This document shows positions 6,162-32,930 of a stretch of DNA of 36,178 bases, in pieces. Within the stretch, counting starts at the first letter, position 1; every line of letters starts with the position of its first letter. Below the pieces are notes generated by a model. That model was not told the origin of the DNA. It worked only from the letters and a program-made list of their open reading frames with translations, and ran no database searches. The stretch spans positions 1-36,178 of the IMG/VR virus record IMGVR_UViG_3300007790_000056. The stretch is one strand, 5' to 3'. The position numbers were made by a program, and so were the translations under genes. Source of the stretch: a virus.

Positions 6162-6190
6162 GGAAAGGCAAGTTAAAAGACTAATTATAG
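6162..6190 (+). repeat. Late-module box, copy A
   Basis: GGAAAGGCAAGTTAAAAGACTAATTATAG lies 44 nt upstream of ATG 6234, directly after a hairpin and T-run. Confidence 0.9.
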
Positions 6191-6233
6191 AGGGGCAACC
6201 TTTTATCACATACACAGAAAGGAAAGATAGAAA

Positions 6234-7937
6234 ATGGCAAAACCTACAACTTTTAATTTTGCGTCAATGAATTCGGACACAGATTTAGGTATTATTGTCA
6301 ATGGCATTAAGCGTGATTCATTGGCGAAGTTGAACCCTACATTTACTTCAGTAGCGGGACGACATGGCGAAGTATACGAAGGTACACAACGAGGTGGTAA
6401 GGAATTCGAAGTAGAATGTACTCTTATGGCGAATTCTGAAGTCCAACGAGAAGCGGAAATAGATGAATTAGCAGGGTTCTTCGGACAGACGACAGACGGT
6501 GATTTATACCCGCTCATTTTCAGCGATAGAGCAGACACGATTTATTATGCTGTCCTAACTGAATTCAGCGCATTATCACCCCTATCACAGACCGTACATG
6601 ACGGAAACTTCACACTTAAATTTTTCGTACCTGAAGGCGTGGGCTACATGGACTTAATTGAACAACCAATCACAGAACCCACAATCACAATCGAACCTTT
6701 AGGCACAGCCGATACTGCACCAATCTTTGAATTGACAGCAGGCGAAACATTATCACAAGTCGGTATTTCAGATAGTGAAGGGAATTTTATCTACTTAGGC
6801 GGTGGCTATGATGTAGACCCCAACGAAGATACACCAACGACAGCTACAAGTGAATTAATCCTAGCTGATTCAGCGAATGACTTATCACTTTGGACGAAGC
6901 TAACAACAAATCTACCATTCACAATTGAAAATGGTTCTGTAGCTTCTGACGCTTCATTAGCTACTACACCTGACGCTATCGAACCTGCTAAAAAGAACGG
7001 GGAATACTTCTTCGGTACGAACCCTAACGGTGCAGGTAAAAAGGGGTGGTATGGTGCGGTATATCATCGTATGCTTACCACTTCACTTCCTGATTGGAAA
7101 GTACGAGCGAGATTCTTTATTAATAACCGCTACGGACGAGCGCAGAACAAGATTGAACTGTATCTATTGGACGCTAATAAGAAGCGTATCGGTAAGCTAA
7201 TGGTGAAGGATAACGGGAACAGCATGACTAATATGCTTCAGGCACAGATTGGCTATGATTCAAACGGTACTCACAAAGAGGTGTACACGTCACTGAAAGA
7301 CGCAAGTATCAAGACCACTAAAAAGAACTCACTTTCTAAGAAGCCTGTATACTTCAAACATACGAAGAAAGTTACTGATAAAAAGACCAAGAAAACAAAG
7401 ACGGTCTACACGACTTCAGTAGCACACGCACAGTCGAATGAAGAAAATACCTTCACAGACTTTTATGGCTATATTGAACTGACGAAGAAAGGCAACGTAT
7501 ATTCCGCTACAGTCCAAAAACTAGATTCAAAAGGGAAGGAAATCAGCGGGAAAGCCTATTCATTAGGGACGTACACAGACAAAAATAATACATTCGGTGA
7601 TTCGTTAGCGGGTGTGGCTATCTACATGGCTAAACATGACATTACAGAAGATAGCAACGGGAAGGCATACAAGCCGAATCAAGTACAACTTACAGACTTG
7701 CGTATCTACAAAGTGAACCTAAAGGGTGAGGTGGATATGGTAGCAGACAAAGGGGACGTTATCACGATTGACTGTGACAACAAACAGGTGTTCAAAAATG
7801 GCGTTCTATACAACAATTTGTATTTATCGTCAAGTTACCTAACAATGTTAGCAGGACAACCTAACGTCTACAGCGTATCACCTACCCCTTCAGCTACGAA
7901 TACATGGAAAGTGAAGTACAGTCCTAAGAAATACTAG
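6234..7937 (+). CDS. Distal tail protein (Dit), enlarged form with C-terminal extension
   Basis: First ORF after the tape measure gene. The N-terminal ~150 aa look like the siphovirus tail family (NSDTDLGIIV ... VAGRHGEVYEG ... FEVECTL). At 567 aa it is about twice a minimal Dit. It contains a Lys-rich tract KKNSLSKKPVYFKHTKKVTDKKTKKTK. Confidence 0.75.
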   Translation: MAKPTTFNFASMNSDTDLGIIVNGIKRDSLAKLNPTFTSVAGRHGEVYEGTQRGGKEFEVECTLMANSEVQREAEIDELAGFFGQTTDGDLYPLIFSDRADTIYYAVLTEFSALSPLSQTVHDGNFTLKFFVPEGVGYMDLIEQPITEPTITIEPLGTADTAPIFELTAGETLSQVGISDSEGNFIYLGGGYDVDPNEDTPTTATSELILADSANDLSLWTKLTTNLPFTIENGSVASDASLATTPDAIEPAKKNGEYFFGTNPNGAGKKGWYGAVYHRMLTTSLPDWKVRARFFINNRYGRAQNKIELYLLDANKKRIGKLMVKDNGNSMTNMLQAQIGYDSNGTHKEVYTSLKDASIKTTKKNSLSKKPVYFKHTKKVTDKKTKKTKTVYTTSVAHAQSNEENTFTDFYGYIELTKKGNVYSATVQKLDSKGKEISGKAYSLGTYTDKNNTFGDSLAGVAIYMAKHDITEDSNGKAYKPNQVQLTDLRIYKVNLKGEVDMVADKGDVITIDCDNKQVFKNGVLYNNLYLSSSYLTMLAGQPNVYSVSPTPSATNTWKVKYSPKKY

Positions 7938-7953
7938 AAAGGAATGATAAGGA

Positions 7954-10359
7954 ATGGATTATGTTATTTTAAACCCTGACTTGAAAATGGTCGGGTCATT
8001 ATCTGCACAAGGCAATGGTGTCCCTGTACTTGCTGACAGCGTAGTAACAAAGATTGCAGACGCACAGGCAAGTGATACAGGCGAATTAGCGAAGGTGTGG
8101 CTTGATACCCTTTCACTAACGCTACCAAGTGGCTTCGATGAAACAGAAATGATTGATAATGGCTACCATATCGCTACTGAAGTAGGGGACAAGTGGCATT
8201 TATACACTGTAGACAACGTTACAACGGAAATCGCAGGCATGAATCACCACATTCAGGTAGAAGCCCTTAACTACGTCAATTACACGCTGAATCATAAGAT
8301 TATTCGTGCTAAAACGTGGGACAAGCCCCCTTCTTCGGACGATGTATTAGGCTATATTTTCGAAGGTACGGGACTTATTTTAGACGATATGGAAAAATTC
8401 TACGTTGGTGACGGGTCTACAAGCTATGAAATCGCTGAAGGAACACGCCAACAGGCACTAGACGAAGCATTAAGCAAGTTTGAACTAGAGGTAGAAGGCT
8501 ATACGGTCATTCGTGGGGGTCGTCCTGCGGAGAATCGTGTATCAATCGTTAAACAGATTGGGCAGAACACAGGACAGCGTTTCGAATATGGTAAGAACCT
8601 GAAAGGCGCAAGCCGTAAGAAGCTCACAGACACGATGTACACGAAGTTATTAGTCTTTGGGGGTACAAAAGACGGGGCGAAGGGTAGAACGTCCATAAAG
8701 AGCGCAAACAAGGTTAAAAACCCACAGACAGGTGTCTATGAGTATTCAGAATTCCTAATTGATGATGAAGCCAACGACTTATACAACTACGGTCAACCTT
8801 ATTTAGAGGGCGTTATTCAGAATGATACGATTACCGAACCGCAGGCGTTATTAGATTGGGCGAAAAAGGAACTGAAGTATTATAATCACCCAAAATATGA
8901 GTACACAGTTGAAGTGGGGTTATTCGGTGATGAACCGCCAATGTTAGGTGATACTGTAGCCGTTGTAGACTTATTGATGAACCCACCAATGACGATTACA
9001 GCGAGGGTAGTAGAAACGAAGGCAAGTAAGACAGCCCCTTCTGAAAATAACGTGGTATTAGGTGAATTCAGAACCGTCCAAGCGGTCACACCGAACCTAA
9101 TCTACCAACTACAAGCGCAGGCATTGGACGCATTACAGCAGGCGCAACAAAACAGCAAGTCTAGCTACAAAATTGAATACTTTACGCCTGACGGTACAGA
9201 CTTCGCTACCACTACAGAAGTGAAGCGATTAATTGTACGTGTATTCAAAGACTTGAAGAACGTTACAAGCGAATTTCCTGCTTCTGCTTTCCGTTGGTCT
9301 AAGTTAGATAAGGACGGCACACACATGGAAGATTGGGAACAGGCACATGAGGGCGTAGGTAACATCATTGAAGTGGATTACCTAGACGCTAACTACACAA
9401 TTCGCTGTGAAGTAGTGGACGAGCAGGGGGACAGTGTTATGTCATTGAACGAAAGTGATTTTATTTTTGCTTCACGATTAGAATACTTCCCTGAAGCGGT
9501 AGATGATGTGAATAGACGTGTCGCACAATACGCACAGGTGGACGTTAAGACGTACCAAATCTATTGGTCACAGAAATACACAGGGTCACAGCTAACAAGC
9601 GCAGAAAAAGACCCTAACAAACCTGAAAGCTATTCAATTAGCCGAACAGGGGTTGACGGTAAGGTACTTGACCGAATGATTGTACGTTATGGCGGTCATG
9701 GGACGCACTTTGGACTACAACGTGACCCTGATACAGGTAGTATATGGATATATTCACCAATCCATGACATTGAGATGGGGCGTTGGTATTTTGCCCGCTT
9801 CAAGTACACAGCCAACCTAGTGATTGACTTCAATAGCCAATACATTGAGATTCTAGGACACAGCGAGAACTACAGCTACATGAGAATGAACGTTGACCAA
9901 GATAATAACTATGCGATTCTGACAGCAGGACTAGCTGACAAAACAGTGTACCGCATTTATAAGCTATCAGACTTCCTAAAAGGCAACCTGAAAGCACAAT
10001 ATAAATTCTATGCTTCAGACTTCGGTATCACCGCTTCACAGACGTATCAAGGGACAGCTATTTCATACCCTTATGTGTACACGTCTTGGGGTAAGGGTGT
10101 CGATAACGATATGTCAATGATGAACTGTATTGATATGCGAACAGGCGCAGAAGTCTATCGTATCAATTTCAACTACGGGGCGAATATCAAGCCTACAGAA
10201 TCACAGGCGGAAATCGAAACAGTGAGCGTTTATACGGACGGTGGACAGCGACACATTTTAGTAGGTTTTGCTTTCGCTTCAGAAACAGAAACGGAAACAG
10301 CCAAATACAATATGCTATATGACGCTGTGGAAACGATTAGAGAGGAGGTTGTTCAATGA
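7954..10359 (+). CDS. Tail-associated protein (Tal) / minor structural protein
   Basis: 801-aa ORF immediately after Dit, the canonical Tal position. The N-terminus resembles the phage minor structural protein N-terminal region. Confidence 0.75.
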   Translation: MDYVILNPDLKMVGSLSAQGNGVPVLADSVVTKIADAQASDTGELAKVWLDTLSLTLPSGFDETEMIDNGYHIATEVGDKWHLYTVDNVTTEIAGMNHHIQVEALNYVNYTLNHKIIRAKTWDKPPSSDDVLGYIFEGTGLILDDMEKFYVGDGSTSYEIAEGTRQQALDEALSKFELEVEGYTVIRGGRPAENRVSIVKQIGQNTGQRFEYGKNLKGASRKKLTDTMYTKLLVFGGTKDGAKGRTSIKSANKVKNPQTGVYEYSEFLIDDEANDLYNYGQPYLEGVIQNDTITEPQALLDWAKKELKYYNHPKYEYTVEVGLFGDEPPMLGDTVAVVDLLMNPPMTITARVVETKASKTAPSENNVVLGEFRTVQAVTPNLIYQLQAQALDALQQAQQNSKSSYKIEYFTPDGTDFATTTEVKRLIVRVFKDLKNVTSEFPASAFRWSKLDKDGTHMEDWEQAHEGVGNIIEVDYLDANYTIRCEVVDEQGDSVMSLNESDFIFASRLEYFPEAVDDVNRRVAQYAQVDVKTYQIYWSQKYTGSQLTSAEKDPNKPESYSISRTGVDGKVLDRMIVRYGGHGTHFGLQRDPDTGSIWIYSPIHDIEMGRWYFARFKYTANLVIDFNSQYIEILGHSENYSYMRMNVDQDNNYAILTAGLADKTVYRIYKLSDFLKGNLKAQYKFYASDFGITASQTYQGTAISYPYVYTSWGKGVDNDMSMMNCIDMRTGAEVYRINFNYGANIKPTESQAEIETVSVYTDGGQRHILVGFAFASETETETAKYNMLYDAVETIREEVVQ

Positions 10360-11957
10360 TTATTGGAACAGCAGATATTACTTTCACACGAAGCGAAGCC
10401 CTGATAGGTAATTTAAACATTGGGGGACGTAACCTGATTCAGTCCAATAACCTTTTCGGTATGGGTGAGGACGTTTATGACATTACCAACTTCCTGAAAA
10501 CGGGGGAAATTATCTTCAAAGGGCAGGCGGTAAATGATACGGGGGTCTGCTTCACTATGCCAAGTGCAATAAATGACATGGTAATGGGCGAAGAATACAC
10601 TTTAGCCTTTTCTATCAAGCAAGTAGACGGGTTATTATCCAACTTTGAGGTTGTGACGGACGCTTGTTTCACTATTCAGACAATTAAAGTCAATGGAATT
10701 GAAGCGGAATCACCCCTAATTACCGTTGGGGACGCAACCAAGAGGGAGGTAGTCGTAACTTTAGCCCGTACAGCAGTAGTAGCTGACGAAGTGACTACAG
10801 GTAAGGTGTGTATTATGGTCAATCAGGGTCTAGTGGACGTTGGGACAGTTAGTATTCTAAACTTGAAGCTAGAGAAGGGGAATGTGTCTACAGGGTTTAG
10901 CCCTGCACCTGAAGATGTGAATTCACTATTTGATTTACAGGCTGACATTTTAGCCGAACTTCAGGAATCGACAGCACCGCAGACAATTATTGACACTGTA
11001 CTGTATTCAAACGACTTAACGACTATTTTAGGCGACAAGGCGAATAAAGAAGATATTGCGGACATGGCTACAGGGTCACAAGTCACACAGTTAGAAACGA
11101 ACCTGACTGAATACGTTGACACAGCGAAAGCCCTTCAAGACGATTCAATCAACAAGCTAACAGCAGACTTAACGAAGGTAAAAGGACAGATTGACGCTTC
11201 ATTCGGTCTATCAGGCGGTATTAATCTGATTCAAAACAGTGTCGGTTACTTCGGTCATGATATGTGGACGGTTACAGGCGCACTTGAAACAGTCAGCAAC
11301 TTAGAATTAGAACAGTTGGTAGTTGGTAGCGGGTTCTATTCGCCAAATACTTCTATCACGAAGGCGGTACAAGAAATTCCTGTCAAATCAGATACAGATT
11401 ACACAATTAGCTTCTTCATGAAGAAACCACAAGGGGCGGGCAATGCGTTCATTAAAGTCTATGACGCTAATGACAAAGCCTTGTACCAATTCAGCACCTA
11501 TTCCGCTTCTGATGTATCGAACCAATACAAGGCTTTCGCATACACCTTCAAGACACCGAATAACGCTGAAACAATCAAGATAGCTATAGAAATTGATTCT
11601 GTAGTCGAATGTTATATCACAGCATTGATGTTATCAGAAGGGACTACCAACTACGGGTGGACACAGCACAGTACCGAAATCGCTAATACCAATATTCAAA
11701 TGAATATCAACGGTATCAAGGTTCTTGGCGCAGACGGGAACAGTTACACAGTTATGTCACCTTTCGAATTCAGCGGGTACGCCAATGTACTGAATGAAGA
11801 TACGAATACGATTAACACCGAACGTATTTTCACACTGAATGGCGATACTACAGAAGTGAACCGTCTGAAAGCGAAGCGGTCAATTGACTTAGGTAATATG
11901 GTTATCGTGCCAATAGCAAAAGACGCTATCAACGGTTGGGCATGGTTTAAGAAGTAG
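10356..11957 (+). CDS. Tail fibre / baseplate protein with two jelly-roll (CBM-like) modules
   Basis: ATGA start/stop overlap with Tal. It carries the motif LKLEKGNVSTGFSPAPEDV, common at domain ends of Gram-positive phage host-specificity proteins. A second, related motif is MLSEGTTNYGWTQHSTE. Confidence 0.6.
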   Translation: MIIGTADITFTRSEALIGNLNIGGRNLIQSNNLFGMGEDVYDITNFLKTGEIIFKGQAVNDTGVCFTMPSAINDMVMGEEYTLAFSIKQVDGLLSNFEVVTDACFTIQTIKVNGIEAESPLITVGDATKREVVVTLARTAVVADEVTTGKVCIMVNQGLVDVGTVSILNLKLEKGNVSTGFSPAPEDVNSLFDLQADILAELQESTAPQTIIDTVLYSNDLTTILGDKANKEDIADMATGSQVTQLETNLTEYVDTAKALQDDSINKLTADLTKVKGQIDASFGLSGGINLIQNSVGYFGHDMWTVTGALETVSNLELEQLVVGSGFYSPNTSITKAVQEIPVKSDTDYTISFFMKKPQGAGNAFIKVYDANDKALYQFSTYSASDVSNQYKAFAYTFKTPNNAETIKIAIEIDSVVECYITALMLSEGTTNYGWTQHSTEIANTNIQMNINGIKVLGADGNSYTVMSPFEFSGYANVLNEDTNTINTERIFTLNGDTTEVNRLKAKRSIDLGNMVIVPIAKDAINGWAWFKK

Positions 11958-11977
11958 GGGAAACCCTGCTTTTTTTG
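11941..11977 (+). terminator. Terminator-like hairpin spanning the stop codon of 10356..11957
   Basis: CATGGTTT-12 nt-AAACCCTG (7 of 8 bp) followed by CTTTTTTTG. Confidence 0.5.
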
Positions 11978-11981
11978 TTTT

Positions 11982-12010
11982 GGAAAAGCAAGTTAAAAGA
12001 CTAATAAGTG
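11982..12010 (+). repeat. Late-module box, copy B
   Basis: GGAAAAGCAAGTTAAAAGACTAATAAGTG lies 33 nt upstream of ATG 12043. It is followed by the hairpin GTAGT-aacaaa-ACTAC. Confidence 0.9.
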
Positions 12011-12042
12011 TAGGTAGTAACAAAACTACAGAAAGGAATGAT

Positions 12043-15470: not shown

Positions 15471-15492
15471 AGGGGCTACGGAAATAGCCCTT
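15471..15492 (+). promoter_or_regulatory. CGGAAA-loop hairpin H1 (holin-endolysin spacer)
   Basis: AGGGGCTA-CGGAAA-TAGCCCTT forms 6 Watson-Crick pairs, then a G-U wobble and a further A-T pair. It lies in a 123-nt non-coding gap. Confidence 0.6.
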
Positions 15493-16545: not shown

Positions 16546-16562
16546 AAACTAGACAAAACAAA

Positions 16563-16590
16563 AACGCCCCTGTTATAATAAAAGGGCGTT
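16563..16590. terminator. Convergent terminator between the endolysin gene and the minus-strand small membrane gene
   Basis: AACGCCC-14 nt-GGGCGTT. The U-tract is on the minus-strand side (plus-strand ACAAAACAAAAA at 16551-16562). On the plus side the stem is followed by hairpin H2. Confidence 0.6.
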
Positions 16591-16604
16591 AGCGGAAACT
16601 GACG
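16587..16604 (+). promoter_or_regulatory. CGGAAA-loop hairpin H2
   Basis: CGTTAG-CGGAAA-CTGACG (6 bp, one G-U). Its 5' arm overlaps the 3' arm of the preceding terminator. Confidence 0.55.
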
Positions 16605-16640
16605 TGAGATTACTCATATTCTTTTTCGATTACCACATTT

Positions 16641-16844
16641 CTATTTTCGAGTTGTTTTTGAGCCTTTCTTTTGGAAGGCTCTTTTTCTTTTTATGTGACG
16701 AATCCAATCTTCGCCACAAATACCACAAAACAGTATAGCGATAACAATTAACACACCGTTGCCACCAAAGAAATGACCCACCACACTGAATCCTACAACG
16801 TAAACTACTAGCCAAAATAACGATTTTAACAATGATTTTAACAT
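16641..16844 (-). CDS. Small two-TM membrane protein (holin-like topology), late-cassette driven
   Basis: ATG 16844 is preceded by CAGGGGGAA at 7-nt spacing. The 67-aa product has two hydrophobic helices and a basic C-terminus (RHIKRKRAFQKKGSKTTRK). The track's longer start at 16889 lacks an RBS. Confidence 0.7.
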   Translation of the reverse strand: MLKSLLKSLFWLVVYVVGFSVVGHFFGGNGVLIVIAILFCGICGEDWIRHIKRKRAFQKKGSKTTRK

Positions 16845-16914
16845 ATTAAATTCCCCCTGTTTTTTCTTCTTAATAATAATATAACCCAACCACCGAAACA
16901 GTGTTCAATAGTTA

Positions 16915-16979
16915 GGTAAATTTGTAAACATTTTTACTTGTTAATGTATACCTGTAAACTTGTAAACATTTTTACATAC
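16915..16979 (-). promoter_or_regulatory. Late regulatory cassette, inverted copy (2 x 27-nt units, 11-nt spacer)
   Basis: The reverse complement reads GTAAAAATGTTTACAAGTTTACA-ggtatacatta-ACAAGTAAAAATGTTTACAAATTTACC. This is about 90% identical to 28181-28245. Confidence 0.8.
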
Positions 16980-17339
16980 TTACAACAATTGACGCTCGAT
17001 ACATTCTACATAATACTTCAGGATAGCGTAGCGTACATTGCTATGCACACGAAGCGGTCTTTCCAATACCTGCTGACTGAATAGCCATTCCAAAGTGACG
17101 TAGCTTTCACAACCTTTAGAGCCGTACACCTTGCTTGGGGGTACGTTAAGTAACTTCAGCATATCGTCTAAGTTGTATCTAGGGAAGTTATTTGATACCA
17201 ATGTACGGACTGTCCCTTCACCTATGAATAGCGTTAGAGAATCTTTGTATTCCCCTTCTGATAAGTGAAGCATTTTGTCCACGACCCCTTTCAACTTGGC
17301 TCTTTCTTCTGCTGATAAATCATTGATGAATTCTTCCAT
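16980..17339 (-). CDS. Hypothetical protein (119 aa)
   Basis: ATG 17339 is preceded by AGAAAGAGGG. The track's TTG start at 17369 is unsupported. No family was recognised. Confidence 0.7.
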   Translation of the reverse strand: MEEFINDLSAEERAKLKGVVDKMLHLSEGEYKDSLTLFIGEGTVRTLVSNNFPRYNLDDMLKLLNVPPSKVYGSKGCESYVTLEWLFSQQVLERPLRVHSNVRYAILKYYVECIERQLL

Positions 17340-17363
17340 GTTAAACCCTCTTTCTGATAATTG

Positions 17364-17392
17364 TTGCAATACACAGTATACCTTGATATACT
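17364..17392 (+). promoter_or_regulatory. SigA-type promoter on the + strand inside the minus-strand module
   Basis: TTGCAA (17364-69), a 17-nt spacer, then TATACT (17387-92). Confidence 0.55.
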
Positions 17393-17407
17393 AATTCATG
17401 TGGTGGC

Positions 17408-17423
17408 GGTAGCGGAAACTACC
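17408..17423 (+). promoter_or_regulatory. CGGAAA-loop hairpin H3
   Basis: GGTAG-CGGAAA-CTACC, a perfect 5-bp stem. Confidence 0.5.
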
Positions 17424-17508
17424 AACCCCTCATTTTATGTGTATTAGTTTTGAATAGTTGGTTATGAGTAGTAACAGAACATTGACAACTGAATAGATGT
17501 GCCTAGCA

Positions 17509-17547: not shown

Positions 17548-17552
17548 TGCCC

Positions 17553-21800: not shown

Positions 21801-21834
21801 TTTGAATTCCTCATTTCTATTAGTTGTTTTATTA

Positions 21835-21846
21835 CTGTAATTACAT
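21835..21846. promoter_or_regulatory. Operator-like palindrome CTGTAATTACAT, copy 2
   Basis: It has the same position relative to the leftward promoter as copy 1 has to its promoter. Confidence 0.6.
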
Positions 21847-21873
21847 CTTAACCCCTTATTAATGTAATGTCAA
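21845..21873 (-). promoter_or_regulatory. Leftward early promoter
   Basis: The minus strand reads TTGACA (plus 21868-73), a 17-nt spacer, then TAAGAT (plus 21845-50). Confidence 0.7.
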
Positions 21874-22627
21874 CTGTTATTATTAAATTAATTAAATTAG
21901 TTTTATTTGATAGTCCAATTATGGTCTTTAGGTAGTCCCTTCTATTCCTTTGTTATTAAGTGGAACAGGTGTATTAAGTGGTGGAATCTCTATTAGTAAG
22001 GCTCTATAAACCCCTATGTAAAAGCCTTTGTGTAGTATCTGATTAAGGTTATACATATATAGGGTGTATATGAAGTGTCTTGTATATAGTAGTTATCTAT
22101 TCAGTCTAGTGTGTAAGAAGTGGGTCAATCCCTTGTGGCTCTAAGGCTGAAGCCTGTTTCAAAGCTAGTCGGTATGGCATTACACAATGTGTTATATCAT
22201 TGTTATATAGCCGTACCGAGTAACTTTAATACCTTGTAAACCCTTATGTATCAAGGGTTTGAAGGCTATTTAAGTAAAAGACTGAATAGGTTTTAATAGA
22301 GATTACAAGAAAGGTTATAAAAGAGGTTATATAGATACTAATAGATAGATTATATTAATAGATATACTGAATGGTCATAGGAATATAATTGTCCTTCCCT
22401 CTTGGTTATATATAGTAATAAGAGATATATAGTAAAAAGTGATTCAATAACTGTAGTTGTCTTATATTATAGATAAGTGGGAAAAAGTAGCCTAGTTAGC
22501 ACGTTATTAGTAAGAGGGTATTTTATTAATAGCAGAATGGGAAAAAGTAGACTTCAACTGACGATAAAGGTAAGAGATATGTTTAAAGACTATTCAAAGG
22601 GGCTATATACTACATTGAGAACAAGTT
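21874..22627. other. ~750-bp ORF-free, AT-rich, repeat-dense region between divergent early promoters (candidate replication origin)
   Basis: TGGGAAAAAGTAG occurs twice (22478-90, 22538-50). TATTAAGTGG occurs twice (about 21953 and 21971). TAAACCC(C/T)TATGTA occurs twice. TAAGAGATAT-type and TAGATA reiterations are present. There are nested inverted repeats, TCGGTATGGC/GCCGTACCGA at 22169-22220. The region is adjacent to the initiator gene. Confidence 0.4.
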
Positions 22628-22657
22628 TTGACATTACATTAAATAATGTGTTATAAT
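22628..22657 (+). promoter_or_regulatory. Rightward early promoter (consensus -35, extended consensus -10)
   Basis: TTGACA (22628-33), an 18-nt spacer ending in TGT, then TATAAT (22652-57). Confidence 0.8.
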
Positions 22658-22667
22658 GTAATTACAG
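22656..22667. promoter_or_regulatory. Operator-like palindrome ATGTAATTACAG, copy 3
   Basis: TGTAATTACA abuts the -10 of the rightward promoter. Confidence 0.6.
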
Positions 22668-22692
22668 ATAACAAAGAAAGAGGGAATCGGAA

Positions 22693-24558
22693 ATGAGTAA
22701 TCAAACAGTGGCAATTCACATTGACGGTGTAAGGCACAGCATTAAGCCTAAGACCAACCTAAGCAAAAAGACTTCACGTGTCCAAGAGGTGACACCCGAA
22801 CAATTCAAGAATGTACTGACTAATGGTATGACGGTATGCCTAGCAGAATTCACTACAGCATATCCTTGGGCTTCAGAAGCGGAATTCGTACAACAACAAT
22901 ACTTCATGTTAGACTTCGATAACTACGAGGTTATAGACAAGGAGAAGGTACGATTCACAGATAGCCGTTACCTAAGTTTTGAAGAAGCTAAGAACAACCG
23001 CTTCCTGCAAGAGAACGCTATCTTTATGTATAAGACGTTTTCAGACGCAGAAGGACATGACCGCTTTCGTGTAGCTTTCAAGTTGGATAAGCCTATGACA
23101 GAAGTAGTTGAAGCCTTAAAGGTGAACATGGCACTTCTAAAGCACTTCCCCAACGCAGACGCAAACTGTAAAGATATTAAGCGTATTTCATTCGGTGGTA
23201 AGAGCGAACATCACATATTCGATTATAACAACGTCCTGAAACACGCTTCATTGGACACAGAACAGCTTGAATTGAATCAGAAGCAAGTAGCAAGCAATTC
23301 ATTCGAAAACAGCGCAGAACTAACGACAAACAGCGATACACACGAAATCGTGTCGATGATTGCTAATGGTGAGATTACAGAACTACAGGAAAAGCTAAAC
23401 ATTGAAGGCGTTGTCTACCCTTCAGTGTACGTGGTGAAAGCACAGTTGAAGAAGATTAATCTTGCTGAAGTATTCAATGTTCCGCTTGGTATTAACTTCT
23501 GTGACATATTCCATGAAGAAAGCAACCCTTCAGCACGTATTTACAAGAATGACAATGGCGAATACGTTTACACGTGTTTCTCCGCTTCGAATAAATATGC
23601 AGGGGACATTATCAGTGTTATCCAACGTATTAGAGATTGCCAATACCATGAAGCGATTGAGTTTCTAATGTGTATGTTCGACATCACTATTAAGGTGAAC
23701 GAGGACGTACAACGTATTCACAACCAACTAGACTTGGTTATCGGCTTGTTAGAGGACGTGAACACGCTTAAAAAGGAATATCCTGACGTACACAAGGTAT
23801 TCATTAACCCTAAGAACCGTTCTTATTGCAGACAGATTCTACAACTATTCAGAAATCATACATTTATCGACTACAAGACAGGCGAACAGCAGGTAGCTAT
23901 CACAATGTCAGTGGACACGATTATGTATATGCTTAGTTGCAACAGCAGACAGACAATTAATGACGCTTTAATCAAACTTCGTACAATCGGCTTGATTAAG
24001 TCACTAGACGATACAGAAGTACCACAGCACGTATTAGTTAAAATGCGTGATAGCCAACTGAAACGTAATATTGACGTTGGACGCTTCACCAACCGAACAA
24101 ATATGCACTCATGCAGTATTCAAAACAATATGCTTGGTGTCATTTCTAAAGGGTGCGGTGAATATCGTGAAAAACGTATCACAATCGCTACAATGAGTAA
24201 TAAAGGTATTGGCTTGGCGTTAGGTGAGGAAAAGAGAAAAGAAACATTCGTACATGACCAAAACAAGCAAGCTGTATCACCGAAAGTGCAGAAACAAGTT
24301 GATTCATTGATTAAATACGCTGATAAGTTTATCGAAAAGAAAGGCTACGCTTGTGACGCAGATTTAATTAACAAATTCAATCAGGGCTTTAAGCTAGGGT
24401 CTAAAGCGAAAGCTAAACGTATCTACGATGAACTACGAAGCGGAATGATTGCACAAGGTAATTTTAAAGCCATTCAAAATAACAAGGAGAATCGCCAAGA
24501 ACATAACATACAAGAACGTATGCAAGGCGGTCATTTCTATATCAAAGGAGAGAAATAA
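22693..24558 (+). CDS. Replication initiator / primase-like protein (AEP-like N-terminus + degenerate CHC2 zinc-finger-like segment)
   Basis: FMLDFDN is a DxD-type motif, and GHDRFRVAFKL is also present. CDIFHEESNPSARIY...YTCFS resembles the DnaG CHC2 finger (CPFHxEKTPSF...YxCFGCG) with the last Cys pair lost. At 621 aa it is the only obvious replication enzyme. Confidence 0.6.
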   Translation: MSNQTVAIHIDGVRHSIKPKTNLSKKTSRVQEVTPEQFKNVLTNGMTVCLAEFTTAYPWASEAEFVQQQYFMLDFDNYEVIDKEKVRFTDSRYLSFEEAKNNRFLQENAIFMYKTFSDAEGHDRFRVAFKLDKPMTEVVEALKVNMALLKHFPNADANCKDIKRISFGGKSEHHIFDYNNVLKHASLDTEQLELNQKQVASNSFENSAELTTNSDTHEIVSMIANGEITELQEKLNIEGVVYPSVYVVKAQLKKINLAEVFNVPLGINFCDIFHEESNPSARIYKNDNGEYVYTCFSASNKYAGDIISVIQRIRDCQYHEAIEFLMCMFDITIKVNEDVQRIHNQLDLVIGLLEDVNTLKKEYPDVHKVFINPKNRSYCRQILQLFRNHTFIDYKTGEQQVAITMSVDTIMYMLSCNSRQTINDALIKLRTIGLIKSLDDTEVPQHVLVKMRDSQLKRNIDVGRFTNRTNMHSCSIQNNMLGVISKGCGEYREKRITIATMSNKGIGLALGEEKRKETFVHDQNKQAVSPKVQKQVDSLIKYADKFIEKKGYACDADLINKFNQGFKLGSKAKAKRIYDELRSGMIAQGNFKAIQNNKENRQEHNIQERMQGGHFYIKGEK

Positions 24559-24559
24559 T

Positions 24560-24901
24560 ATGTATTTATCAAAACTAAACAAAAAAGACGTATTCTTCAA
24601 AATGGAGAACATCAAAAAAGAGGAATTCTATCTTATTTCAGCCTATAACGAAGTGACCGAAAAGGTAGTGAAGGTTTACGGTATGACGGGTGAAGAAGTG
24701 CAGGAATTGCTATTGGACGCTGAAGATTCTGAATTACTGATTGACTGCTTAAGACAATACAATCCTGACGTGTACTTGGTGGTGTTCGACATATTCAAGG
24801 ACGATGAAACATTCTATAGCTTCACCAATGGCGACATTGACCACTTCTTCGGTATCATCAACGGCTATAATGAGTTGATTGACAAGGAAAAAGTAATGTG
24901 A
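24560..24901 (+). CDS. Hypothetical acidic protein (113 aa)
   Basis: ATG 24560 follows AAAGGAGAG and the primase stop. The track's start at 24449 overlaps the primase gene without an RBS. Confidence 0.75.
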   Translation: MYLSKLNKKDVFFKMENIKKEEFYLISAYNEVTEKVVKVYGMTGEEVQELLLDAEDSELLIDCLRQYNPDVYLVVFDIFKDDETFYSFTNGDIDHFFGIINGYNELIDKEKVM

Positions 24902-24908
24902 TAAGTAA

Positions 24909-24938
24909 TTCGCACAAATGGTCAAAATATGTTATAAT
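24909..24938 (+). promoter_or_regulatory. Middle promoter, paralogous to the one at 20452-20481
   Basis: TTCGCACA-N-TATGTTATAAT: -35 TTCGCA, an 18-nt spacer, extended -10. Confidence 0.55.
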
Positions 24939-24965
24939 AAGGTATAAAGATTTTAGTGGTAATAG

Positions 24966-25000
24966 AGATAGGCTCAATCTTGGGCTTATCTATTATTTTT
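24966..25000 (+). terminator. Promoter-proximal terminator-like hairpin
   Basis: AGATAGGC-10 nt-GCTTATCT (8 bp, one G-U) followed by ATTATTTTT. It lies about 20 nt downstream of the predicted start site. Confidence 0.5.
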
Positions 25001-25043
25001 AAAATAGTAATGTTAAACGTTGTAATTATAGGAGGAATAAAAA

Positions 25044-25316
25044 ATGTACATTTCAGTTAGGAAAAGAAAGAACCGCTTCGGTGAATTAGGTTTAACGCTT
25101 GGTCTTGCGGAAACGTTTAGAGAAAACGGAGAAATCAAGAATAGAGCGGTCTACGTTGGGACGATTATTGCAGAAGATTTAGTAGCAGGAGAAACACGTA
25201 AACTAGACCGCCAAGTGAAAATGCGCTTAAATGAAGAACAACAGGCTATCTTTTATAGTAAGTTGCCTGATGTAGTAAGCCGTTTCAAATATCTTAAAGA
25301 GAAAGCGGGTGAATAG
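25044..25316 (+). CDS. Hypothetical protein (90 aa)
   Basis: RBS TAGGAGGAA precedes the ATG. No family was recognised. Confidence 0.8.
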   Translation: MYISVRKRKNRFGELGLTLGLAETFRENGEIKNRAVYVGTIIAEDLVAGETRKLDRQVKMRLNEEQQAIFYSKLPDVVSRFKYLKEKAGE

Positions 25317-25317
25317 C

Positions 25318-25524
25318 ATGATGTTTGAAGGTAGCACGAAAGGCATTTCAACAGTAGATAAAATAGAGCAGTCGTACAAGTCGTATTACACAGGACGTGG
25401 TAGCGTCACAATCCAATTAAACCGCACCTTTAAGCAGGAGATTGAAATGCAGAACCGATTATCGTACTTCAGACGTACAGTTGGTAATGAAGCTAGACGC
25501 AGGTTATTAAGATTACTGAATTAG
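25318..25524 (+). CDS. Hypothetical basic protein (68 aa)
   Basis: ATG 25318 lies just after the upstream stop. The alternative is GTG 25309. Confidence 0.6.
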   Translation: MMFEGSTKGISTVDKIEQSYKSYYTGRGSVTIQLNRTFKQEIEMQNRLSYFRRTVGNEARRRLLRLLN

Positions 25525-25541
25525 GAAAGGGTGTAGCAAGA

Positions 25542-25712
25542 ATGTTTTATATTCCATTAGCTATATGTTTAATGCTTATTGTAGTGCTTATTTGTATCAA
25601 GGTAATTGTTGAATCAGATTTTACGACAGTTAAGACGGTCAAGATTCTTATTTTAACCACCGTAGCGATTGCTATATTAATCGCCTGCTTAACACACTAT
25701 AGCCTGCACTAA
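25542..25712 (+). CDS. Small two-TM membrane protein (56 aa), below the track cutoff
   Basis: ATG 25542 follows GGAAAGGGTG. The product is MFYIPLAICLMLIVVLICIKVIVESDFTTVKTVKILILTTVAIAILIACLTHYSLH. A terminator follows. Confidence 0.5.
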   Translation: MFYIPLAICLMLIVVLICIKVIVESDFTTVKTVKILILTTVAIAILIACLTHYSLH

Positions 25713-25723
25713 TATTTAAACAG

Positions 25724-25746
25724 CCCCTTTCAGAGGGGTTTTAGTG
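25724..25746 (+). terminator. Intrinsic terminator
   Basis: CCCCT-ttcag-AGGGG followed by TTTTAGTG. Confidence 0.65.
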
Positions 25747-25771
25747 CGTTTAAGGAAAGGATTGAAGGAGA

Positions 25772-26230
25772 ATGACAAAGGTATTAGCTATTGACCAATC
25801 GTTACTATCAAGCGGTTGGGCGGTGCTTACAGAACACGAATTGATTGATAGAGGGAAAATCAAGTCAGGTTATAAAGAGGACTTCAGGAACATACAGAAG
25901 CAGTTAGAAGCCCTTGTAGACGTTTACGAAGCACATAAGCCTGACGTGGTTATCTTAGAGCAAACAACGTACCAACGAAACGCAGACACCTTTAGAAAGC
26001 TATCAAAGCTATTAGGGGTCATTGAATTATTCTTCTATCAGCAGGGTGTACCGACAGTGATTTATTACCCTAGCACTTGGAGAAGTAAAGTGAAGATTAA
26101 AGGAAAGAAACGAGCCGAGCAGAAGTTAGAAGCTAAGAAGCGGGTTCGTGAAGATTATCAGATTAACGCTTCAGAAGATGAATCAGAAGCAATTCTACTA
26201 GGACTAGCCTACTTAGAAACCAACCAATAG
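25772..26230 (+). CDS. RuvC-like Holliday junction resolvase
   Basis: The N-terminus KVLAIDQSLLSSGWAV carries a catalytic Asp. VILEQT carries a Glu, and there is a C-terminal acidic ASEDESEA segment. At 152 aa it matches the phage RuvC-like resolvases of low-GC Gram-positive phages. Confidence 0.8.
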   Translation: MTKVLAIDQSLLSSGWAVLTEHELIDRGKIKSGYKEDFRNIQKQLEALVDVYEAHKPDVVILEQTTYQRNADTFRKLSKLLGVIELFFYQQGVPTVIYYPSTWRSKVKIKGKKRAEQKLEAKKRVREDYQINASEDESEAILLGLAYLETNQ

Positions 26231-26245
26231 AAAGGAAAATGCAAA

Positions 26246-26809
26246 ATGAATACACATGAAATCGTTAAATTAAATACAATCGAGGGTCTATCACACCTGA
26301 AGGATTATTACCACATATCGAACACAGGAAAGATTTATTCAACGTACCGCCAACCTGAAGGGGAACTAAAAGAGATTGCCCCGTATTTAGTAGGTGCGGG
26401 TTATCAGCAGGTGCAATTAGGAACGAAGCAGGGTGGTTTTAAGAAGCTATACGTCCACCGCTTAGTTGGCATGGTCTTTGTCGAAGGATATGCAGAAGGA
26501 TTAGTCATTAATCACAAGGACGAAAACAAGCTGAATAATCATTACCTGAATCTTGAATGGGTGACGCAAAAGGAAAATATAAACTACGGCACACGTACAA
26601 AACGACAAAGCAAGTCATGTCAGAAGCCATTAGAAGCGATTGACCCACTGACGGGTATTACGTGCCTAGTATTTGAATCAGTAAGAGAAGCAATGGACAA
26701 GGGCTTTTCAGCTAATGGCATTTCAGAAGCGTCTAGGGGTGAATGGTGCAGTCATTTAAAACATGGTGGCACAGACGTATATCGTGGCTACAAATGGCGT
26801 TACGTTTAG
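26246..26809 (+). CDS. Free-standing HNH homing endonuclease (NUMOD4-like N-terminus, HNH_3 core, C-terminal DNA-binding repeat)
   Basis: Motifs are YYHISNTGKIYS, VHRLVGMVF...INHKDENKLNNHYLNLEWVTQKEN, and C-terminal FESVREA...GISEASRG...YRGYKWRY. Confidence 0.85.
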   Translation: MNTHEIVKLNTIEGLSHLKDYYHISNTGKIYSTYRQPEGELKEIAPYLVGAGYQQVQLGTKQGGFKKLYVHRLVGMVFVEGYAEGLVINHKDENKLNNHYLNLEWVTQKENINYGTRTKRQSKSCQKPLEAIDPLTGITCLVFESVREAMDKGFSANGISEASRGEWCSHLKHGGTDVYRGYKWRYV

Positions 26810-26906
26810 TTGGGGGCAACCCCTGACATACATAAGATAAGTTAGCTTATATTATTAGTAAGAGATATATCATAACCAATAGAGAAAAAGAAAAGGGGAA
26901 TTGTAA

Positions 26907-27569
26907 ATGAATGAAGAATACACGTTAGAGGGTTTAGAAGCTATGCTATTGAACTACCACAAGTTAGAGGGGAACGATTACAAGATTGAAGTAGACCGCT
27001 TCTTAGCAAGCGATTTAATCACATATGACATGGCAATTTATATCAGTATGCACTATGCGCTAGAATTAACAGACTTACAGATTGTTCGACTATTAGGTGA
27101 AGGTTATTCGCTCTTGGATATGAAAGAAGCAAGAGAAGAAGTCCTAGAGTGCCTAGAAGCCTTTCTAAGAGGTTTCAAGACGAAGAAGGTAAAATACTAT
27201 AAAGAATTCAATGCACCTGATATAGAGGGTCATTTAAAGCTATTGAAAGCGGGTGTCATTAGTCCAATGTATATCAGTTTCAGTGTAACAAAGGAAGTGA
27301 ATGAACGACTTGCCCAAATGGGTGATGATAACTCTAAGGTGCTTATCGAACAGGAAGCAGGCTATTTCAGACCGAACCTATCTGAAGAAAACTATTGGGA
27401 CGAGAAACCGCTTCGAATTTACAAGACAAATGACTTCGGTCATAAGACAGCAGAAAACGATGAATTCTATAAGCGTGACATGGCGAATAGGGTTACACCT
27501 ACCTATGACGTGGACGTGACCATGTATAATGCAGGACTAGCGAAAAAGGACAGACGAAAGGGGAAATAA
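26907..27569 (+). CDS. Hypothetical protein; possible sigma-region-4/ArpU-like HTH (weak)
   Basis: ISMHYALELTDLQIVRLLGEGYSLLDMKEAREEVLECL loosely fits a sigma r4-type helix-turn-helix pattern. It lies two genes upstream of the late operon. Confidence 0.3.
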   Translation: MNEEYTLEGLEAMLLNYHKLEGNDYKIEVDRFLASDLITYDMAIYISMHYALELTDLQIVRLLGEGYSLLDMKEAREEVLECLEAFLRGFKTKKVKYYKEFNAPDIEGHLKLLKAGVISPMYISFSVTKEVNERLAQMGDDNSKVLIEQEAGYFRPNLSEENYWDEKPLRIYKTNDFGHKTAENDEFYKRDMANRVTPTYDVDVTMYNAGLAKKDRRKGK

Positions 27570-27572
27570 AGC

Positions 27573-28043
27573 ATGGGTATTATTAGAGCATTTGACGAAC
27601 TACCATACGAAGAAGAAGTAAGATTGTATCAGGAACTACAGGACGACTTGCTGAATATCTTTGGCAATGATTCCTATAGTGATGTGGAAGCCCTTAGAGG
27701 TGACTTCCAAGCCCTTATGCTTGACCCTTATTATTCGTACCTGCTTGATAACTATGTACTTAATAACAGGGAATATTATATAGATGTCAATGAGTTATTC
27801 AAGTCTATTACACCGAACCGTTGGAAAGTATGCAAAGTCTGTGGGAAACCATTCTTAGATTACACCACATACAATAAGTCTAAGATATGCTACAGCGCTA
27901 TCTATAAACGATACAGCTTACGCAAGGGGGAATTCTTTACTTCAGCAGGTGAGAAATCAGAATGTTATATGAAGTACAAGAGCAAAGGGTGGCATAAATA
28001 CAATTCGGAAAAGCAAGTTGAAAGACTAATAAGTGAAGGGTAG
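27573..28043 (+). CDS. Hypothetical Cys-containing (CxxC) protein; candidate late regulator by position
   Basis: It contains WKVCKVCGKPF ... C ... C. It is the last gene before the late cassette. Its last 12 codons are encoded by box C. Confidence 0.3.
   Translation: MGIIRAFDELPYEEEVRLYQELQDDLLNIFGNDSYSDVEALRGDFQALMLDPYYSYLLDNYVLNNREYYIDVNELFKSITPNRWKVCKVCGKPFLDYTTYNKSKICYSAIYKRYSLRKGEFFTSAGEKSECYMKYKSKGWHKYNSEKQVERLISEG
28003..28036 (+). repeat. Late-module box, copy C (34 nt identical to copy D)
   Basis: ATTCGGAAAAGCAAGTTGAAAGACTAATAAGTGA encodes NSEKQVERLISE at the C-terminus of 27573..28043. Confidence 0.95.
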
Positions 28044-28062
28044 CGGAAACTGCCTTTCACTT
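28031..28062 (+). promoter_or_regulatory. CGGAAA-loop hairpin H4 (13-bp stem)
   Basis: AAGTGAAGGGTAG-CGGAAA-CTGCCTTTCACTT (2 G-U pairs). It includes the stop codon of 27573..28043 and the 3' end of box C. Confidence 0.7.
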
Positions 28063-28105
28063 CTTTCTGTGATGATTACTCATTGCGGGATTCCTCCTTA
28101 TGTAT

Positions 28106-28173
28106 GGGCGGTAGGATTAACAAGTGATTGGCTATGAAACGCAAATGCCCAAACACTAGCCTATCGCCCTTTT
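28106..28173 (+). terminator. Long imperfect stem-loop terminator closing the middle operon
   Basis: The base stem is GGGCGGTAGG / CCTATCGCCC (one G-U). The inner stem is AGTGATTGG / CCAAACACT. It is followed by TTTTATTA. Confidence 0.6.
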
Positions 28174-28180
28174 ATTATAT

Positions 28181-28245
28181 ACAAGTAAAAATGTTTACAA
28201 GATTACAGATATACATTAACAAGTAAAAATGTTTACAAGATTACA
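28181..28245 (+). promoter_or_regulatory. Late regulatory cassette: perfect 27-nt tandem direct repeat with 11-nt spacer
   Basis: ACAAGTAAAAATGTTTACAAGATTACA occurs at 28181-28207 and 28219-28245. Each unit holds the inverted repeat GTAAA-N4-TTTAC. The cassette ends 15 nt before ATG 28261. A possible weak promoter is TTTACA-17-TAACAA. Confidence 0.8.
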
Positions 28246-31471: not shown

Positions 31472-31496
31472 TGGGGTCGAGAAAGGGGAAAAAGTA

Positions 31497-31703
31497 ATGT
31501 TAAATAAATTAGCAATGATGATTGGGGCAGGATTATCTAAGATAAACTTTGGTTTTGTCCTATTTGTAGTAGGGTTGGTATTCGTTGCCTACGGTTTCTT
31601 CCTGCTATCATTCGTAGCGGGTATCTTCGCAGTAGGTATTATTACAACCGTTGTATCATTTATCGTGGACGGTGCGACACAAGCAAGTAAAGACAACCAA
31701 TAA
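31497..31703 (+). CDS. Small two-TM membrane protein between TerL and portal
   Basis: 68 aa with RBS GAAAGGGGAAAAAG. It has two hydrophobic helices. Confidence 0.6.
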   Translation: MLNKLAMMIGAGLSKINFGFVLFVVGLVFVAYGFFLLSFVAGIFAVGIITTVVSFIVDGATQASKDNQ

Positions 31704-31724
31704 TAAGAAAAGGAAGTGGAAGTA

Positions 31725-32930
31725 ATGCCATTTTTTAAAAGAAAAGAAAAAACAGCAGGGGAAAAACGAGCATTTACGAATGACCCCTATATTTACACAG
31801 TACCAAACTTGGACAGTACCGTATTCACAGATAATTCATATGTAGGTATCGGTGCGCTGAAGAATTCAAACATTTTCACAGCAGTTTCACTAATTGCTAC
31901 GCCTTTAGCTTCGATTCCAATTCGTATCAAGAAGAACGGGCAAGTTATCCAAGACAAACAGCTTCATAAAGTATTAAACGTGAAGCCAAATGAAATCATG
32001 TCAGCATATTCTTTCCGTTGGGCGATTGTCGCTAATATGTTATTGAACGGTGAATCATTCGCTTTAATCGAGCGTGACGAAGTGGGGCAATTATCAGCAC
32101 TACGAATCATTCCATGTAGCGATATTCAGGTGTATTCAGACGAGCGCACAATTCGCTATGAGTATACACAGCATACCTATGATAAGAATGGCGTAGAGAA
32201 GGGTCAAAAACGTTTCATGCTAGATAGTGAAGAAATTCTACACTTTAAAGTGAACGCTGTAGACGGACTTCGTGGTGTATCACCTATCTACTCATTATCT
32301 TCAGAACTCACAATGATGGAAAAGACCAACAACACCCTTCTATCGTACATGAAGCGGGGTATTCAAGGTTCTTCTGTCCTGTCATTAAGCAATGCACAGC
32401 TTAACAAGGAAACAAAAGACAAGATTCGTAGGGACTTTGAAGAAGCCAATGCGAACAACCAAGTTATTATCTTGGATAAAGGCATGGAATGGAAACAGGT
32501 AGAAGTAAATGCCAACGCCCTACAGCTTGCCAACTCAAATGATTGGACAACTAAGCAAGTGGCGAAGGCGTTCGGTATTCCGTTAGACCGCTTCGGTATG
32601 GAAATGGTCAATACATCGACTGCTGAATCGAATAAGAACTTCATTCAATCTACTTTGAATGGTCATTTCCAAGCGATTACAAGTGAACTAGACATCAAGT
32701 TAGGCGAAATTATTAGCGAAATGGACGTAATTGAAACCTATTTTGATACAAAGTCGCTTACTTTCGATTCGGAAAAGCAAGTTGAAAGACTAATAAGTGA
32801 GGTAGCAGGTTCGATTAAAACACCTAACGAGGTGCGAAAAGAACTTGACTTACCGCCTGTAGAGGGTGGGGACGTTATTAAGGAGTTAAACCCTAAGAAC
32901 CCCCAACCGCTACCTAGTGAGGGGGTGTAG
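31725..32930 (+). CDS. Portal protein (HK97 family)
   Basis: ATG 31725 follows AAAGGAAGTGG. About 400 aa, with the C-terminal signature GSIKTPNEVRKELDLPPVEGGD typical of HK97-family portals. Confidence 0.95.
   Translation: MPFFKRKEKTAGEKRAFTNDPYIYTVPNLDSTVFTDNSYVGIGALKNSNIFTAVSLIATPLASIPIRIKKNGQVIQDKQLHKVLNVKPNEIMSAYSFRWAIVANMLLNGESFALIERDEVGQLSALRIIPCSDIQVYSDERTIRYEYTQHTYDKNGVEKGQKRFMLDSEEILHFKVNAVDGLRGVSPIYSLSSELTMMEKTNNTLLSYMKRGIQGSSVLSLSNAQLNKETKDKIRRDFEEANANNQVIILDKGMEWKQVEVNANALQLANSNDWTTKQVAKAFGIPLDRFGMEMVNTSTAESNKNFIQSTLNGHFQAITSELDIKLGEIISEMDVIETYFDTKSLTFDSEKQVERLISEVAGSIKTPNEVRKELDLPPVEGGDVIKELNPKNPQPLPSEGV
32767..32800 (+). repeat. Late-module box, copy D (inside the portal gene, in frame)
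   Basis: ATTCGGAAAAGCAAGTTGAAAGACTAATAAGTGA encodes DSEKQVERLISE. It lies 134 nt upstream of the protease start. Confidence 0.95.

Follow-up and report, generated by a model that had tools for sequence, protein, structure and literature searches.

Four copies of a conserved box along the late genes of an uncultured siphovirus as candidate phage-specific late promoters

Late promoters that share an element and depend on a phage-made factor are a well-known kind (P2, Mu, T4, T7 and RinA-type phages), and their arrangement is ordinary for phages. In P2, 186 and P4, four late promoters with a common element on the late strand are served by a small Cys4 zinc protein (Ogr, B and Delta), which acts as an activator with host polymerase; the P2 element, a dyad, lies near -55, ahead of a sigma-70-like core. 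Middle promoters of T4 combine a MotA box at -30 with a sigma-70 -10, and the gp36 promoters of phiEco32 consist of a single extended -10-like element. In lambda, the PR'-qut-tR' region is a single site at which promoter, short leader and terminator precede the first late gene, with the regulator gene directly upstream. Small late activators of the Ltr superfamily (RinA, ArpU and LtrA-C), whose gene is the last of the early genes and lies just ahead of terS or HNH, switch on the morphogenesis and lysis genes from one promoter, upstream of terS (PMC3753634). Here we analyse a box of about 34 nucleotides (nt) that recurs four times in the genome of an uncultured soil phage, IMG/VR virus record IMGVR_UViG_3300007790_000056 (positions 1 to 36,178; the whole 36,178-nt stretch is called the window). 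We lean, with a modest degree of preference, towards reading its copies as phage-specific late promoters used together with a phage factor, where promoter activity, start site and factor identity are all deduced from the sequence.

The 24-nt core of the box, GGAAARGCAAGTTRAAAGACTAAT, was found with at most one mismatch on the + strand at 6162, 11982, 28007 and 32771 (0.00 expected, 100 shuffles), and the window scan returned no copy on the - strand or in the early region, at the very end of which copy C lies. The four boxes are:

Box A: 6162-6194, + strand; core 6162-6185, ACTAAT 6180-6185, predicted start G 6192
Box B: 11982-12014, + strand; core 11982-12005, ACTAAT 12000-12005, predicted start A 12012
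Box C: 28003-28039, + strand; 34-mer 28003-28036, ACTAAT 28025-28030, predicted start A 28037
Box D: 32767-32803, + strand; 34-mer 32767-32800 within the portal gene, predicted start G 32801

All of them are oriented along the late genes, and boxes A and B each stand directly behind an intrinsic terminator:

6125-6155, + strand: intrinsic terminator after the tape-measure gene; hairpin 6125-6150 (-19.9 kcal/mol, z = -6.4), U-run abutting box A
11949-11981, + strand: intrinsic terminator after gene 10356-11957; hairpin 11949-11974, U-run abutting box B

The genes that follow A and B have good ribosome-binding sites. The Dit start (6234) is 43 nt from box A, and box B is followed by a hairpin (12014-12029) and by the start of a receptor-binding-protein (RBP)-like gene (12043/12049) about 32-38 nt downstream. 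Box C overlaps the last 12 codons of the open reading frame (ORF) 27573-28043, the last early gene, and box D lies about 130 nt upstream of the protease start (32934), ahead of protease and capsid. GGTAG occurs downstream of B, C and D. An earlier note on this DNA had reported the four same-orientation copies, the positions of A and B after a terminator and T-run just upstream of the Dit and RBP-like starts, the GGTAG, and the 34-nt identity of C and D, lying in the end of one ORF and in the portal gene and encoding SEKQVERLIS in the same phase; our analysis recovered each of these. The description of the boxes as spread across the late module holds for A, B and D, whereas C sits at the 3' end of the last early gene.

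Alignment of the window copies with those of two relatives, the close relative L003 (contig SRR24204752_63904) and L022, revealed a conserved block of about 34 nt made up, in order, of (T)(C)GGAAARGCAAG, a less conserved tetramer, RARACTAAT, and six variable bases followed by a purine and G. A register for this block was offered by a paralogous unit:

16550-16690, + strand: TAGACA-18-TGtTATAAT, CGGAAA hairpin TAGCGGAAACTG, GATTACTCAT, terminator 16660-16681

Its TAGACA-18-TGtTATAAT is a near-consensus extended sigma-A promoter, and the unit shares the hairpin TAGCGGAAACTG and GATTACTCAT with the box C region. On alignment, TGtTATAAT coincides exactly with GACTAAT of the box, and 10 nt separate the hexamer from the TAGCGG of the common TAGCGGAAACTG hairpin in box C and the unit alike, suggesting that ACTAAT is -10-like and that, by analogy, transcription would start at about 6192, 12012, 28037 and 32801. 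The conserved block would then run from about -31 to +3, with GGAAARGCAAGTTRAAAG at -30 to -13, ACTAAT at -12 to -7 and, after a discriminator of 6 nt, a start at purine-G. A purine at +1 and G at +2 were found in 9/9 copies (the window four, L003, L022 and three in Bacillus phage Deep-Purple, described below), and a hairpin starts 1-3 nt past the predicted start in six of the nine (B, C, L003, L022 and two of Deep-Purple); a 5'-terminal stem-loop is an established mRNA stabiliser in Bacillus. We found no common RNA fold across all box copies, the box itself being unstructured, and no Rfam covariance-model match at gathering score in the whole window.

A TTGACA-like -35 hexamer is absent 16-18 nt upstream of ACTAAT, and the boxes were not listed in the consensus scan; in A and B, TTGGAA stands 14 nt from ACTAAT, and TTCGGA is present in C and D. 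Early genes have sigma-A promoters of consensus type, e.g. TTGACA-18-TATAAT at 22628 (+), and another at 21873 (-), while the late region held no excess of sigma-A-like sites (28 sites vs 36 +/- 6 in shuffled sequence). With no -35 at sigma-A spacing, the host RNA polymerase would presumably depend on a specificity factor supplied by the phage, which could be an activator or a sigma-like subunit.

The 34/34 nt identity between C (28003-28036) and D (32767-32800) extends to all wobble bases, in which the earlier note had seen constraint at the nucleotide level. That argument pointed the right way, but stop codons leave the copies no choice of phase: of the three forward frames only one is open, and the other two hit TGA and TAA/TAA, so that any copy within a + strand ORF must take that phase, the protein presumably reading through the box in its sole open frame, and no special explanation is needed. 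Identical in-frame copies in unrelated genes are no proof of peptide selection or of an exotic mechanism when one motif frame is open. In the portal alignment the box D region appears as a replacement, not an insertion; it falls in a helix of weak conservation, and the translated box is compatible with the family consensus of that helix, S-x-x-K-L-I-E-x-L.

Comparison with relatives that keep the gene ending at box C, a check that the earlier note had proposed, revealed the box at site C in both L003 and L022. This gene encodes a 156-amino-acid protein whose family has four invariant Cys (hereafter the Cys4 protein) and a variable C-terminal tail. In L003 (Cys4 protein 81% identical) the core is kept at site C with altered encoded residues (SEKQVKRLTIEG), and the orthologous C differs from that of the window at 5 positions. 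In L022 (Cys4 protein 41% identical) the box begins at the stop codon and is wholly non-coding (TAAAAGCAAGCACAGAAACTAATATATGTAGGATAGCGGAAACTG), which argues that the element is non-coding. These comparisons indicate a real, non-coding element of which the DNA, not the peptide, is kept. Since C and D agree at every position and the L003 orthologue differs at 5, recent intragenomic homogenisation is suggested, pointing to gene conversion among functional copies.

The box appears to be confined to the small lineage of the window. No clear box was seen at the Cys4-family loci of L023, L026, L064 and L066, and other Cys4-family metagenome contigs are mostly 1-2 kb and end too soon to show the box site. 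BLAST of the late region and of the C region against a phage collection gave no match, and nothing on the motif was found in the literature, literal sequence searches giving chance matches only. Exact-pattern scans (24-, 20- and 22-nt) of IMG/VR, JGI metagenomes and GTDB genomes returned isolated matches with unrelated flanks, all of which we discarded as chance. Within the window, a weak fifth look-alike, AAAAGCAAGATGAAAGACAAA at 4278-4298, lies inside the tape-measure gene in another reading frame and without the ACTAAT hexamer; this Lys-rich stretch probably resembles the box by chance.

Among sequenced phages, distant relatives are limited to the Bacillus phages Deep-Purple and C30-2. Deep-Purple (a B. 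cereus phage, NC_048667) encodes homologues of the Cys4 protein and of the 220-amino-acid protein encoded upstream of it, their genes being adjacent, and a repeat search run independently of the window found a three-copy box, ATCAAGGCAAAnTAATnCATKAATrTGTArGG, on its late strand:

Deep-Purple box 1: 6823, late strand; 165 nt before terS
Deep-Purple box 2: 14483, late strand; 55 nt ahead of the major head gene, immediately behind a bidirectional terminator and past three opposite-strand genes
Deep-Purple box 3: 17571, late strand; at the tail-tube stop codon

The skeleton common to the window and Deep-Purple boxes is AARGCAA-N8-AyKAAT-N6-RGG. No mention of the Deep-Purple box was found in the Deep-Purple paper searched or by full-text motif search. 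C30-2 has the gene pair and no recognisable box.

By position, the two proteins encoded where the early region ends, singly or together, are the candidate factor that would read the box:

27573-28043, + strand: 156-amino-acid Cys4 protein, last early gene, encoded over box C; a candidate by position only
26907-27569, + strand: 220-amino-acid protein, its gene being a conserved partner that precedes the Cys4 gene in Deep-Purple and C30-2 too; second candidate

The structural model of the Cys4 protein is confident (predicted local distance difference test, pLDDT, 91.5) and comprises an N-domain of helices, a beta module with the four Cys, and a C-terminal helix that is long and basic. The family amounts to about 35 representative clusters among 1.8 billion proteins, with no relatives in IMG/VR. 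Its gene is always preceded by a 220-265-amino-acid gene of unassigned family (window, L004 gp01/gp40, L005 4672-5828, L063/L064), and several contigs have an HNH_3 endonuclease gene immediately ahead of the two. As the homology extends to position 717, the annotation of Deep-Purple gp01 appears to start too far downstream. The N-terminal segment of the 220-amino-acid protein was also considered as a sigma region-4 helix-turn-helix; the resemblance was by eye only and we did not rely on it.

If the boxes are promoters, boxes and terminators together would divide late transcription into the following units, a layout resembling the late-promoter sets of many phages:

Unit from box C (28007): leader, then HNH, terminase and on to portal; runs on into box D
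Unit from box D (32771): protease, capsid, connectors, tail tube and chaperones; ends at terminator 1369-1396
Unit without a box: tape measure; ends at terminator 6125-6150
Unit from box A (6162): Dit, Tal and gene 10356-11957; ends at terminator 11949-11974
Unit from box B (11982): RBP-like gene to lysin; ends past lysin (hairpins at about 16563-16590 and 16660-16681)

The genes and the remaining terminator are placed as follows:

155-748, + strand: tail tube, then chaperones
1369-1396, + strand: strong terminator ahead of the tape-measure gene, not followed by a box
1482-6119, + strand: tape measure
6234 (start), + strand: Dit
7954 (start), + strand: Tal
10356-11957, + strand: late gene
12043/12049 to 14307, + strand: RBP-like gene
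15544 (start), + strand: lysin
28261 (start), + strand: HNH
29256 (start), + strand: terS
29732 (start), + strand: terL
31716-32930, + strand: portal, then protease, capsid and connectors
32934 (start), + strand: protease

If confirmed, this arrangement would give a map of the late transcription units for the uncultured phage and its relatives including Deep-Purple, and would make the two uncharacterised, always-adjacent early proteins the likely early-to-late switch.

Downstream of box C lies a leader in which window and L003 agree better than in the ORF upstream of it:

28031-28062, + strand: hairpin of 13 bp with a CGGAAA loop, beginning inside box C
28037-28180, + strand: structured, conserved, non-coding leader of about 140 nt
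28181-28245, + strand: a direct repeat of 27 nt in two copies, ACAAGTAAAAATGTTTACAAGATTACA, with TTTACA in both, immediately ahead of the HNH start at 28261

Counted from the predicted start, 7 bp of the box C hairpin are left as a 5'-terminal stem-loop. The leader helices are P1 (with the CGGAAA loop), P2 (28065-28090) and a terminator-like stem (28106-28169) with UUUUAUUAU, and compensatory changes were seen at 7/27 pairs, thinly sampled by three sequences (window, L003 and L022). The repeats at 28181-28245 are possibly a second, separate promoter or operator for the late operon. In the distant relative L064 the ATGTTTACAA motif (TTTACA) is the -35 of an evident TTTACA-17-TATAAT promoter. 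An inverted copy of the repeat pair, 86% complementary, lies at 16916-16988 before a 67-amino-acid - strand ORF, so that each end of the early region carries this element, pointing outward. Hairpins with a CGGAAA hexaloop, covarying stems and usually TAGCGGAAACTR occur four times on the + strand of the window vs 0.13 expected (stem of at least 5), and a loop that stays constant while the stem varies would suit a protein-recognised RNA motif better than a double-stranded operator:

Window, + strand: 15473-15490, 16587-16606, 17408-17423 and 28031-28062
Relatives: L003 about 10461-10488; L022 about 757-780; L004 (Deep-Purple) about 4352-4367

Box copy C may chiefly drive a small leader RNA, or entry into the late operon may involve antitermination.

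Set beside the described systems, the window shares with P2, 186 and P4 the four copies of a common element on the late strand and a small Cys4 protein; its block, unlike the P2 dyad, occupies -30 to +3 and is not a dyad, nor does a dyad lie upstream of the boxes, the 156-amino-acid protein has no Ogr/Delta Pfam match, and the host is a Firmicute. Position and size of the candidate fit the Ltr superfamily, but the window has four copies, two of them within ORFs, and signatures of ArpU, RinA, Sigma70_r4 and DUF1492 were absent from both candidates (E <= 10). The T4 middle and phiEco32 promoters are alike in lacking a -35, in placing a phage-specified element beside a -10-like hexamer and in occurring in many copies; their sequence is unrelated, and no homologue of MotA, AsiA or gp36 was detected, in a comparison not put to a test. 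The lambda PR'-qut-tR' layout of promoter, leader and terminator, with a regulator gene directly upstream, recurs at box C of the window, L003 and L022 and at Deep-Purple box 1, and does not at A, B and D; lambda has a single site, whereas the additional window copies follow terminators, and there is no similarity to Q in sequence or fold, the 156-amino-acid protein having neither a Pfam or PHROG annotation as a Q-family antiterminator nor a fold match to one. The boxA motif and boxB hairpin that stand between promoter and terminators at lambda nut sites have no counterpart here, as a hairpin follows only B and C. New in the window are the sequence, the absent -35, the Cys4 candidate factor and the leader after copy C. 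A broader proposal, that these features make up an undescribed late-transcription system of a small clade of Bacillus-type siphoviruses, with a -35-less promoter, a Cys4 zinc protein family and a 220-amino-acid partner, and with copy C additionally driving a CGGAAA leader or small RNA that gates the late operon by antitermination or by pairing with the start of a replication gene (ATGAGTAATC, see below), is tentative and we would sooner doubt it.

Several observations weigh against the boxes as late promoters. ACTAAT matches TATAAT at 4/6 positions and has C at -11, lacking the A that sigma-A needs there. Neither the 156- nor the 220-amino-acid protein matched anything in Pfam, PHROGs or NCBIfam, and no sigma factor or known late activator was detected; the model of the former has no fold match in PDB or BFVD, and the single-sequence model of the latter is unusable (pLDDT 34). 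A terminator-like leader stands between box C and the first late gene, a terminator lies about 85 nt downstream of Deep-Purple box 1, before terS, and Deep-Purple boxes 2 and 3 are followed immediately by a hairpin plus U-run. A plain promoter fits these terminators only if transcription begins within the hairpin, or if the terminators leak or are overcome. With the repeat pair between leader and HNH, C may not be the main late promoter. Conservation across relatives was checked at one orthologous site, C, and in a blind scan with a matrix built from the window lineage alone the Deep-Purple boxes did not rise above chance, so that the Deep-Purple comparison is an analogy supporting the functional class, not proven homology.

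Part of this evidence would suit an antitermination device of the Q/qut or nut/put type, in which polymerase starting at or passing a box is modified, by a phage protein on box DNA or RNA or by the leader RNA, to read through the late terminators. Such a device would account for the structured leader and terminator-like stem with U-run that the window, L003 and L022 have between box C and the first late gene, for the compensatory changes in the leader, for the terminator or hairpins behind the Deep-Purple boxes, for the excess of constant-loop CGGAAA hairpins on the + strand, and for a small Cys4 gene immediately upstream, as Q in lambda. We nevertheless consider it unlikely. Boxes A and B lie past their terminators with none after them, and a persistent modification acquired at C would leave A, B and D without a purpose; the box is internally unstructured, A, B and D have no leader, Rfam gave no match, the Cys4 model has no fold similarity to Q or N proteins, and covariation among three sequences is thin. 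The nut-like or RNA-processing sites suggested in the earlier note accordingly suit only C, with its structured leader, and fail for A and B. Oriented sites at which a phage DNA-binding protein silences late transcription, like the stoperators of mycobacteriophages, or some other DNA-level role such as genome organisation, would equally be multi-copy, asymmetric, of one orientation relative to transcription and near gene boundaries, and the 24-nt invariant core exceeds a sigma element alone; this seems improbable to us, as no repressor, integrase or other lysogeny gene was recognised, the sites are only four and confined to the late strand with none in the early region, their register matches a real promoter in the 16550-16690 unit, and the late genes are otherwise without a candidate promoter.

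The earlier note had also raised internal promoters for an alternative or phage factor, the part of its proposals that we favour, and had parsed them as sigma-B-type. Host sigma-B-type promoters (GTTTAA-N12-15-GGGTAT) find some likeness in GTT(A/G)AA-N14-15-GGGTAG, GGTAGT or GGGGCA of the window copies, C matching GGGTAT at 5/6 positions, yet GTTRAA is not kept, being GCACAG in L022 and AGTAAT, ACTAAT or ATTAAT in the Deep-Purple boxes, the distance to the G-rich part is not constant, no copy has the final T, and the most conserved parts (AARGCAA and ACTAAT) lie outside the sigma-B elements; we give this parse very little credence. GGGTAG itself varies in spacing and sequence and is more readily taken for the start site together with the downstream hairpin's 5' arm than for a promoter element. 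Recombination or gene conversion between genome segments probably left its mark in the 34-nt identity of C and D, given the 5 differences of the L003 orthologue, and L003 appears to have a different head module. That the boxes are nothing but functionless relics or hot spots of such exchange is, however, hardly credible: the box is kept at site C in relatives with 81% and 41% protein identity, and uniform orientation, positions after terminators and before genes, and a fixed purine-G at +1/+2 are unexpected for neutral repeats.

The first 91 bases of the window recur at its end, indicating a circularly assembled genome of about 36.1 kb, and protein-family searches assign it to the HK97-type siphoviruses; no integrase, repressor or sigma factor was recognised among the window proteins by these searches. 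Early genes form two blocks:

About 17000-21800, - strand: early block 1
22693-28043, + strand: early block 2

The early region of L003 is about 82% identical to the window at 22700-24880, with the exception of the primase-like gene, which is largely replaced. The L003 portal was not among the matches above 45% identity, and no portal at 45%-100% was present in the protein collection. Together, the replaced primase-like gene and the unmatched portal suggest that both genomes are mosaics with common regulators and modules that are not all shared. The early promoters form a repeat family of their own, in which the sigma-A consensus has shared flanks (TTGACATTACAtTAA...TATAATGTAATTACAG), and five copies of a conserved translation-initiation region, TATATGAAATGAGGAATTCAAAATG, precede the - strand early genes:

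Early-promoter repeats: 22615-22667, + strand; 21845-21890, 20442-20489 and 20323-20358, - strand
TATATGAAATGAGGAATTCAAAATG copies: 18354-18379, 19239-19264, 19588-19613, 20305-20330 and 21797-21822, - strand

With its promoter, hairpin and terminator (16660-16681), the unit at 16550-16690 (+) looks like a small RNA of about 100 nt. It is convergent with the 67-amino-acid ORF (16641-16847, - strand), to whose 3' end it is antisense. The ORF product has two transmembrane segments and a basic tail, and the arrangement recalls holin control or a toxin-antitoxin pair of type I. The sequence ATGAGTAATC occurs in 3 copies vs 0.06 expected (22693-22702, + strand; 16608-16617 and 28074-28083, - strand); the copy at 22693 is the start of the 621-amino-acid primase-like gene, and the other two are reverse complements within small-RNA-like units. 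This pairing is not kept in L003, where the gene start differs. In the window, 28073-28099 and 22677-22703 are 78% complementary over 27 nt, spanning the ribosome site and start codon of the primase-like gene, and the ATGAGTAATC pairing could provide antisense control of this replication gene.

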